Source of the DNA: a virus
Lineage: Duplodnaviria; Heunggongvirae; Uroviricota; Caudoviricetes
DNA length: 25,739 nt
Strand: one strand, 5' to 3'
Virus record (IMG/VR): IMGVR_UViG_2526164664_000020
This document shows positions 3,001 through 6,000 of this stretch, piece by piece (position 1 is the stretch's first letter; the number at the start of each line of letters is the position of its first letter). Made by a program: the position numbers.

Positions 3001-6000
3001 CGCAAAATGCCTTCCGTCGAGGCTGCCACTTTCAGCGCAGTGGCAGAAAAAGCAGAAGTGTATTTTTCAAACATCGCGCGTTTATCGAGCAATATACGCA
3101 TAAACAGCGCCGCGCCGACGGTATTGGTGACCATCATTGGTGCAGCAATATTACTCACCAGACGCACCGCATCTTCATAAGGTCGGGCGATCGCAAGGAT
3201 GATCAGCATTTGCACCATTTCAGCGACGAACGTGACGGCACCGGCGGTAATGGGGTTAAAGACTTTATCAGTGCGCCCGCGACGGATCAGGATGCTGTGT
3301 ACCAGGCCGCCGAGCAATCCTTCAACGATGGTTGAGATCATGCAACTTAGCGCGGTCATGCCCCCCATCGAATATCGATGTAAGCCGCCGGTCAGACCAA
3401 CCAGCCCACCGACGACCGGACCGCCGAGTAAGCCGCCCATTACCGCGCCTATCGCACGGGTATTGGCAATAGAATCGTCAATGTGCAACCCAAACCAGGT
3501 GCCCATGATGCAGAAGATGGAAAAGACGATGTAGCAGAGAAATTTATGCGGCAGACGAACCGTGACCTGCATTAACGGTATGAATAATGGCGTTTTACTC
3601 ATTAACCACGCAATGACTAAAAAAACGCACATCTGCTGAAGCAGCAGCAACACCAGATTAAAATCGTACATACCCGCAAACCACACTTCCCTTTAAAACG
3701 CGTAACATACATTGCCTGCGTTTAACTTTCTTTGAACTCTTGCAGAAAAATGAGAATTCGTGAGTACGATCACTCAAAATCGCCTGGCAAAAATAAAATC
3801 ACCCTATAGATGCACAAAAAACGGGCAAAACTACCTGGTTCGCAAAACTGCGTCTAAAGTTAAACCGGGACCTCGCGAGCAAGGGTGAGACGATGGCGCT
3901 TTACACAATTGGTGAAGTGGCGTTGCTTTGTGATATTAACCCTGTCACGTTACGCGCGTGACGCAACATTTTTAAAAATCAACGAAGATCGTCCAGGAGC
4001 GCCGATTTTCAAGGGTTGGACAGATAATTCGTTTTCGATGTCGACGAACTTCGACGGATTTCGCCTATAAAAAGTGTCCCATACATGCCCCATTGATGCC
4101 CCATAGACAATATCAGCAATTGACACTGGTTATCTATACAACTAAAAATAACACCTGTACATAACCACAGTTACAGGAGGGTGTTATGCGTGTTGAGAGC
4201 TGTATCGCTAAAGAAAAAATCAGCAAAATGCCAAAAGGTTCTGTTCCTGCCCTGCAACAGGAAATGCTGCGCCGTATCAGGAAACGATATGACAATGCAG
4301 AAATCATCATCAAATCTGCCAGTAATAATGGACTCACTATTTTAAGAGCCACAGATAAAGAGTCCGCACACGAATTTGTACAGGAAACACTTCAGGAAGC
4401 CAGGGAAACAGCGGACGACTGGTTTATTCACTGACTAAAATCCCGTCCACATGCCGGGAATTTCCTATGTCCGAAGAAAATGGTGTGGTTAACTAAGCAA
4501 AAGTGTCCCTTTATCGGTATAGCAACTCATTTTGTTAACATACGGTTGCAAAATTGATGACAAGTGTTTATTTTAGCCACAAGAAATGTATGCAAACCAG
4601 AATTGGGAAATGCATTTATAAAATAAGGAATAGCAGATATGTTTGCAGCAAAGCCCGAATTAAGTCAAAGATGTATTTCTGGACTCCTCACAACTGGGCC
4701 AAATGATGAAAACGTAAATAATAAACCGTCAAGTGATATGCCGAACAGAATCAAACTAGTTGTAAGCGATTCACAAATCGGTATATATACAACTGACAGT
4801 AATACTCTGAAGGATGGATTGTGTAGCCAAGCCCACATAGGAACTCAACCTTATCGGCCAGGTGCTGACTCGCCGATAACTGTGAGATCATTCCTACAAA
4901 TCACACTTTCCAACAATAATTACAAATCATTAGAGCATCTGCAAACACGAGCAGAGAATTATCTGAGGTATCGCAAAGCAGAAGAGAATATTCTGCGTTC
5001 GACCGTTGAGGGGCTAACCAATCCAGAATCTCCTGTATTCAAACAAACAGCATGGATGGGGCATCTGGAGCGTGGCCTTTGGAAAACGGAAACACGCTGG
5101 GATGGAAACGACCGCGAGCAGCTAGGCAAAGAGGCTCTTGGCTCAGAGGAGCCAAAACCTGGTTCACCATTTTACGGTAGTCGTGGACTAAAATTATCCG
5201 ACAGTGCGCATTCTGCCTTCTCAATGATGCTGTGCGGTTCTGAAGGTCCATTCACAAAAGAACAAGCACTCTCTGGTTTCGAGCTTGCTCAAACTGGCCA
5301 AGTGCTGGCTGGAAGGCTAAAGATTCAGGAGCGAGTTAAATTCCGCGCAGACAACCGCATTGATGCTCAGCGTAACGGTACACACTCAACCCGCACACCA
5401 ACAGGCATGGATCTTTCTCAAGATATCGGCACAATTATGCGTGATAAAGCTGGGCTACCGGTCATGAGCGGAACATCCGGTTCCTCCTCTGATGCCACTC
5501 TTGCAACACGTTACGCTGCCGAGCATTTTGGTAAGACATGGGCCGCTCCAGGCTTAAGCCAAGCAGAAGGATGCAAAGCTATCTCGGATCTGTCACATCA
5601 CTATTTTCGTGCAGAAGGCTCCAGTCCACCACAATCAATGGCAACGGGAATAAATAAGGTTCGTTATGATGCAGGAATGGAAGAGAAATATGTAAATACA
5701 CTGGATATATTTACACATAGCTACCCAGAAATTTATGCTGGGGTTGCATTGACGATTGCTGGGGCTGGCGGTAATGATGAGCAGGCAATGTATAATGTTA
5801 CGCAAGAAGCCGCTCGTATTCTGCACGAAGCTGAAACTAAAGATTGAACATTCTCAATAAAGAGCTGCGCCAGGCAGCACATATTCAGCATTGCAGTAAG
5901 ATATGCATGCCCAGCCCCCTGTAAACCTATAAATATTTCAAATCATATTGATTATCTTATAGCCATATTTTTTATGACACCCTGTTTCAGTGAACATGAA

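Follow-up and report, generated by a model that had tools for sequence, protein, structure and literature searches.

The DNA analysed here, hereafter the window, is a stretch of 25,739 nucleotides from the IMG/VR virus record IMGVR_UViG_2526164664_000020 (Caudoviricetes). We consider it nearly certain that at its positions 3940-3961 lies the int-distal junction of a lambdoid prophage integrated in the manner of VT1-Sakai/Sp15, seated in the Escherichia coli gene mlrA (also called yehV) by the mechanism set out below. The junction corresponds to attR in the lambda convention and to the ‘right junction’ of Shaikh and Tarr. It was already known, having been annotated in 2000, surveyed by polymerase chain reaction (PCR) since 2003 and tied experimentally to the loss of curli and biofilm. 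It is an ordinary prophage end in its usual attachment site, and nothing about it is mechanistically new.

The host gene order of the window is that of K-12 (yehS-btsR-btsS on the minus strand, then mlrA). The mlrA reading frame opens with the ATG at 3893, continues for 22 sense codons (MALYTIGEVALLCDINPVTLRA) and closes with a TGA at 3959-3961. The match of K-12 mlrA to the window is restricted to nucleotides 1-68 of the gene (3893-3960, 67 of 68 identical); likewise, tblastn retrieves only residues 1-22 of K-12 MlrA, all 22 of them identical. No further mlrA sequence, the 3' part included, was found elsewhere in the 25.7-kb window at either the DNA or the protein level. A three-way alignment with K-12 mlrA and with the int-proximal junction of the relative EH2252 shows the window equal to K-12 through 3960 and departing from it at 3961, K-12 mlrA running onward from the equivalent of 3960 as GCAGAGGCG. 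Base 3961 is A in the window and G in K-12, turning the Trp23 codon TGG into TGA; the same base is the last of the stop codon and the first of the phage. An initial annotation of the window had placed the mlrA start at 3893, the cut after codon 22 and the TGA at the host/phage boundary, and all of these coordinates proved exact. The alignment to K-12 mlrA that it had proposed for placing the att core gives an identity that stops at 3960 and never passes 3961. The PGAP annotations of EH2252 and of a second relative, CAU16175, treat the stretch corresponding to 3893-3958 as an incomplete coding sequence with its C-terminus missing. Upstream, the intergenic region between btsS and mlrA would still carry the native mlrA promoter and ribosome-binding site, the promoter being placed by identity to K-12; this promoter is RpoS-dependent (PMC5941759).

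The sole stretch common to all three aligned sequences is CCTGTCACGTTACGCGCGTG. The core spans mlrA codons 16-23 and has 20 bp in common with K-12, which carries a synonymous single-nucleotide polymorphism (AAT/AAC) at the first base. At the far end of this prophage, GCAGAGGCGTTACGG would be expected to follow the 21-mer CCCTGTCACGTTACGCGCGTG. The exact 21-mer occurs twice in EH2252, at 3940 and 49465 of the prophage-bearing locus (L001), approximately 45.5 kb apart, and the record AP000400.1 labels the same 20 bp ‘attachment site of Enterobacteria phage VT1-Sakai’. The duplication of the core at both prophage ends is thus the anatomy of integrase-mediated site-specific integration. In addition, the direct repeat AAAGTGTCCCATnnATGCCCCAT is found on both prophage arms: as AAAGTGTCCCATACATGCCCCAT at 4071-4093 on the window arm, where an extra ATGCCCCAT lies at 4096-4104, and on the int side of EH2252 at approximately 49390-49412 of L001, some 75 bp from the core and overlapping the 3' end of the integrase coding sequence. 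The direct repeats on the two arms are plausible candidates for arm-type sites at which the integrase (Int) would bind.

The core also contains the dyad GTCACG...CGTGAC. A terminator-like site flagged by a scan at 3943-3963 was rejected as a junction terminator: its fold (-9.8 kcal/mol) does not surpass that of shuffled sequences (z = -0.63), and uninterrupted mlrA of K-12 forms it as well from the same dyad. The terminator-like signal reflects the dyad symmetry of the att core and is at most a weak terminator.

Comparison with AP000400.1, entitled ‘Enterobacteria phage VT1-Sakai ... prophage inserted region in E. coli O157:H7’, extends this picture across the breakpoint. The junction, the phage arm, the SOS box and the start of the dinI-like gene align to it as one block with 98% column identity. 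That record annotates a truncated yehV' on the 5' side and a putative promoter and SOS box upstream of a DinI-like gene; at the other end it annotates xis, int, a second att copy and 'yehV. The initial annotation had put the prophage inside mlrA/yehV, naming that gene as a known integration site of lambdoid prophages, the Stx1 type included; the alignment, the VT1-Sakai homology and the shared core bear out the first point, and AP000400.1, by annotating the same site for VT1-Sakai, the second.

The far end of the prophage, which was likewise to be looked for, lies outside the window, and was located in EH2252, a relative 100% identical to the window over 3300-4700 (1401 bp). There the order is excisionase gene (xis), integrase gene, core and mlrA codons 17-243, the second core beginning 38 bp after the stop codon of a 428-residue tyrosine integrase gene. 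The integrase carries an Arm-DNA-bind_2 domain and a Phage_integrase catalytic domain and is identical to VT1-Sakai Int at 427 of 428 residues.

The frequency of the junction was determined in a collection of 5426 complete E. coli genomes, with a coverage cut-off of at least 80%. The intact site was represented by 200 bp of K-12 sequence centred on the core and the occupied site by 300 bp of the window, the first 100 bp from mlrA and the other 200 bp from the phage arm. Full-length mlrA had been tried as a query for the split gene and was replaced by these junction-centred queries, since the distal piece by itself accounts for 91% of the gene and the full-length query does not discriminate. 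We found mlrA uninterrupted at the core in 4944 of the 5426 genomes and the window junction in 475 (approx. 9%). Together, intact and junction-bearing genomes account for 5419 of the 5424 with any match, and nearly every occupied mlrA site therefore carries the same arm. Among the matches listed, the junction query in genomes with an intact mlrA stops at its base 100, that is, at window position 3960.

These counts bear directly on the possibility that the junction is an assembly chimera, in which mlrA would be intact and phage sequence wrongly joined to it at a short repeat. Nothing specific speaks for such an error, beyond the lack of a complete RefSeq genome that agrees with the window over its full length and a frameshift in the tail tape-measure gene, described below, that is a possible insertion or deletion error. 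However, the junction is shared by 475 independently assembled genomes, matches in intact-mlrA genomes end at the very same base, genomes with an intact and with an occupied site sum to almost all, and the junction of O157 Sakai was annotated from directed sequencing (AP000400.1). An assembly artefact, one of the conditions under which the initial annotation would have failed, is thereby ruled out for practical purposes.

The arrangement can be explained as follows. A tyrosine integrase would have inserted the prophage by site-specific recombination between attP and the core of approximately 20 bp in codons 16-23 of mlrA (yehV). After integration, the mlrA promoter, the ribosome-binding site and codons 1-22 remain on the window side, and the first phage base converts the Trp23 codon to a stop. 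Excision by Int and Xis would be expected to rebuild mlrA exactly, as the duplicated core suggests. In a Pfam map of K-12 MlrA, the MerR helix-turn-helix (HTH) occupies residues 4-72 and is followed by the MlrA helical and C-terminal domains. The cut falls within this HTH, and the window encodes residues 1-22 only, so that a complete HTH is not present. The distal piece, for its part, aligns to the HTH profile from position 16 only, the first 15 positions being absent, and is without the native promoter and ribosome-binding site; moreover, no ATG, GTG or TTG start was found in frame between the TAA at L001 49430-49432 and the core in EH2252. Since neither the 22-residue remnant nor a distal piece that lacks the start of the HTH, a promoter and a usual start codon could stand in for the whole, no DNA-binding MlrA would be made. 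RpoS/MlrA-dependent activation of csgD would then be lost, and curli and biofilm would fall unless the strain has a bypass mutation.

Published work agrees with much of this expectation. The mlrA prophage was present in 53 of 55 O157:H7 strains, with mlrA expression lost, and mlrA supplied in trans rescued curli in O103 and O113 strains (PMC3874044). In eight of 40 O26 isolates mlrA was interrupted, and at 25°C these eight were of the SAW morphotype, which is negative for curli and cellulose (PMC5941759). Excision, whether spontaneous or induced, yields a small fraction of intact sites (PMC5931665), and in strain PA20 excision of the Stx1 prophage restores native mlrA and curli (Uhlich 2016, as cited in PMC5931665). 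We regard curli impairment of the host as a prediction supported by the literature rather than as a certainty. An mlrA::prophage insertion is a recognized cause of poor Congo-red binding and weak biofilm in many enterohaemorrhagic E. coli, and its recognition helps strain typing.

Instead of simply losing mlrA, the host could have had its circuits rewired: either the distal MlrA fragment would be active through run-off transcription from the phage, or the mlrA promoter would read into the dinI-like, espV-like and tccP2-like genes that follow the junction. After SOS induction, the distal mlrA transcript does rise, with a log2 fold change of approximately 3 by RNA-seq and, by quantitative reverse-transcription PCR, 62-fold at 30°C and 21-fold at 37°C (PMC5931665). 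Recombinant distal fragments gave back some affinity for Congo red, according to the account of Uhlich 2016 given in PMC5931665, and PGAP annotates the distal piece as a 233-residue MlrA. However, in the phage arm an ATT is the only start available to the distal frame, ATG, GTG and TTG all being absent, the frame misses the first 15 HTH profile positions, and strongly expressed distal fragments left csgD unraised (PMC5931665). As to read-through, the three cargo genes lie on the mlrA strand, the first beginning 225 bp past the remnant stop, and the junction hairpin is no more stable than shuffled sequence; against it, a promoter-like site and a LexA box of its own precede the dinI-like gene, and the scan does flag a terminator-like site at the junction. 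Taken as a whole, rewiring appears distinctly improbable. Its more particular version, in which the RpoS-dependent mlrA promoter and a 22-codon leader reading frame would drive the same-strand dinI-like/espV/tccP2 cassette past the weak hairpin, is very improbable on the present sequence; were it true, integration might shut off curli and at the same time make the type III effector genes responsive to stationary phase.

The annotation of the distal piece deserves attention for another reason. In EH2252 (L001 49448-49951), PGAP presents it as a 233-residue ‘HTH-type transcriptional regulator MlrA’ (WP_029208472.1) with an ATT start, and does not mark it as a pseudogene. Presence/absence screens based on annotation can accordingly score strains with a split mlrA as mlrA-positive.

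Some observations weigh against integration with consequent curli loss as described above. Neither the 3' part of mlrA nor the int/xis end lies within the window, and we infer from relatives that both are present and intact in this strain. The window has no end-to-end counterpart among complete genomes, the best reaching 97% coverage at 97.3% identity. The tape-measure gene is frameshifted and IS66-family elements lie nearby, which may indicate a decaying copy or, for the frameshift, a sequencing error. On the side of the phenotype, two non-motile O145 strains were not rescued by mlrA in trans (PMC3874044), and one of the eight O26 isolates with an interrupted mlrA still made a moderate biofilm (PMC5941759).

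Some of these signs would also fit a locked-in remnant, that is, a real junction whose prophage has lost int/xis or the far att site, the split of mlrA then being permanent. The frameshifted tape-measure gene, the IS66-family element that truncates yehR 3.5 kb away, the IS66-like element in the cargo region of EH2252 and the rare recovery of prophage-cured cells (PMC5931665) would all be in keeping with such a loss. We nevertheless judge it unlikely, because EH2252, the relative examined through to its far end, keeps xis, an int product that matches VT1-Sakai Int almost perfectly and the second core, because Sp15, although defective in genes for morphogenesis, does excise in Sakai and PA20 (PMC5931665), and because the tape-measure defect is without effect on excision.

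The features of the window are collected in table 1. On the phage side of the junction, the sequence was described initially as AT-rich. This holds locally, GC content being 0.406 over 3961-4638 and 0.41-0.42 over the arm and cargo as compared with 0.488 in the host flank, and fails for the structural genes from 7441 on (GC 0.57). The region under the espV-like gene is labelled ‘secretion protein EspV’ or ‘avirulence protein’ in relatives, and phage JLK-2012 has ‘espV: putative type III secretion effector’ there; the reading frame itself gave no Pfam or NCBIfam match. In CAU16175, tccP2 (297 residues) is annotated between the espV-like open reading frame (ORF) and the tail-fibre genes, and gene order, as distinct from alignment, suggests that the 231-residue ORF of the window is its equivalent. 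The corresponding cargo region of EH2252 (L001 6178-8793, against approximately 6000-7400 in the window) holds an IS66-like element of the ISCro1 family, with no tccP2 annotated. The cargo region differs even between strains with identical junctions.

Table 1. Features of the window, with position, strand and the evidence for each.
Feature	Position	Strand	Evidence
Host btsS-mlrA intergenic region	3687-3892	+	Identical to K-12 in alignment; stays joined to the 5' remnant
mlrA 5' remnant, 22 codons and TGA	3893-3961	+	Translation and K-12 match
att core, 21 bp, CCCTGTCACGTTACGCGCGTG	3940-3960		Duplicated in EH2252; breakpoint at the 3' edge of the core
int-distal phage arm	3961-4185	+	98% column identity to VT1-Sakai across the junction
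Promoter-like site	4120-4149	+	Scan; promoter annotated at the equivalent AP000400.1 position
LexA box (putative)	4153-4172	+	SOS box annotated at the equivalent AP000400.1 position; LexA binding predicted
dinI-like gene	4186-4434	+	Pfam DinI, E = 1.8e-15; called ‘DinI-like family protein’ by PGAP in relatives
espV-like gene, putative type III secretion effector, 402 residues	4639-5847	+	Annotation of relatives and of phage JLK-2012
tccP2-like gene, 231 residues, EspF-type proline-rich repeats	6349-7044	+	Pfam EspF repeat, E = 7.9e-110, four stretches
Side tail fibre	7441-8760	-	Pfam phage_tail_N, Phage_fiber_C
Lom	8819-9406	-	Pfam Ail_Lom
J	9487-12960	-	gpJ annotated under the match in relatives
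Tail tape-measure gene, two overlapping ORFs (16171-18474 and 18435-19412)	16171-19412	-	Pfam
Portal protein gene	23453-24817	-	Pfam Phage_portal, E = 2.3e-79

Beyond the cargo, a lambdoid morphogenesis module is present: the remaining minus-strand genes up to the window end are other tail and head genes, and the prophage runs past that end, the major capsid and terminase genes coming next in relatives. The tape-measure gene is a single coding sequence of 1080-1088 residues in relatives. In the window, it is split between one ORF with Phage_HK97_TLTM and Tape_meas_lam_C and another with TMP_3, the split corresponding to a one-nucleotide deletion (AA to A) near 18452 with respect to the relative's gene; the match coordinates fit CAU16175. 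The prophage is a mosaic variant, as is expected of a lambdoid prophage. Rfam and tRNA scans of the window found nothing.

Two side observations concern the portal region and the host edge of the window. Positions 22395-24817 of the minus strand hold two abutting ORFs, the 454-residue portal protein and a 353-residue ORF (22395-23456) that gave no Pfam or NCBIfam family match. In both relatives, PGAP annotates here a 2.6-kb ‘phage portal protein’ flagged as frameshifted (EH2252, L001 23235-25819; the other, L004 34177-36761), and this ‘frameshift’ may in fact be two genuine genes. At the other extremity (1-713), an IS66-family transposase gene, represented by its 3' end (1-321), adjoins a yehR without its 5' end. 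Homology of yehR to K-12 starts only at approximately 359; most relatives match from 359 only, and the IS66 arrangement is also found in EH2252 and a few other genomes.

The cargo also affects the detection of the junction. Primer A of Shaikh and Tarr is found in the window at 3915-3934, whereas the site of primer E is absent from it at up to three mismatches. The target of primer E is H0002 of VT1-Sakai (3636-3656 of that locus, L003), with a predicted product of 702 bp with primer A. An apparent absence of primer E from VT1-Sakai itself, at zero mismatches, was set aside, as the primer printed in PMC3874044 differs from its target by one base. Since the primer E site is replaced by the espV cargo, right-junction PCR (A and E) would miss the present variant. 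Primer F lies within the int gene of EH2252 (L001 48956-48975), and the int-side PCR (F and B) alone should detect this prophage. What the window adds to a known junction is therefore small: a cargo variant with espV and tccP2 in place of H0002 and H0003 of VT1-Sakai, the loss of the primer E site and the pitfall in annotating the distal fragment.

Among known prophages, VT1-Sakai/Sp15 (and CP-933V), the Stx1 prophage of O157:H7 in yehV, has the same attB core and the same mlrA breakpoint as the window. Its layout is alike, with a dinI-like gene and then tail fibre, lom and J moving away from the junction, and it shares with EH2252 the xis-int-core-'mlrA arrangement. It differs in what lies beyond the dinI-like gene, namely H0002 and H0003 where the window has espV and tccP2. 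In a Stx1-converting phage, stx1A and stx1B lie between the gene for the Q antiterminator and those for lysis. The mlrA prophage of EH2252, covered through to the distal mlrA piece, has no stx annotated at any point, and neither has the part of CAU16175 that was retrieved, which ends at the tRNA genes. In EH2252, the tRNA genes and the SASA esterase gene are only approximately 0.5 kb apart, and it is in this interval that we presume stx would lie. The stx position is beyond the window end, and the window prophage should not be called a Stx1 phage.

The best match in the phage database over the junction-proximal 5.4 kb is Escherichia phage JLK-2012, a prophage of O55:H7 DEC5E (JQ347801/NC_049942), with 77% of the query covered at 97.6% identity. 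The match begins at the first phage base of the window, and JLK-2012 carries espV, tail fibre and lom. To these it adds NleA4795 and a protein with DUF1076, and it leaves 23% of the query uncovered.

Phage phi10403S, inserted in comK of Listeria, is a gene-disrupting prophage switch (active lysogeny). The mlrA prophage resembles it in splitting a regulatory gene that precise excision would restore, and differs in that no evidence points to regulated, non-lytic excision serving as a developmental switch. For the mlrA prophage, cured cells are seldom recovered, and csgD fell after SOS induction rather than rising (PMC5931665). A mechanistic parallel is lambda-type recombination, with which the present system shares a short core at both ends, arm-binding and catalytic domains of Int, putative core-type and arm-type sites with repeats on both arms and, in EH2252, xis beside int. 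It differs from many phages that integrate at the 3' end of a gene and reconstitute it: here attB lies within the coding sequence, and the interrupted gene is not restored.

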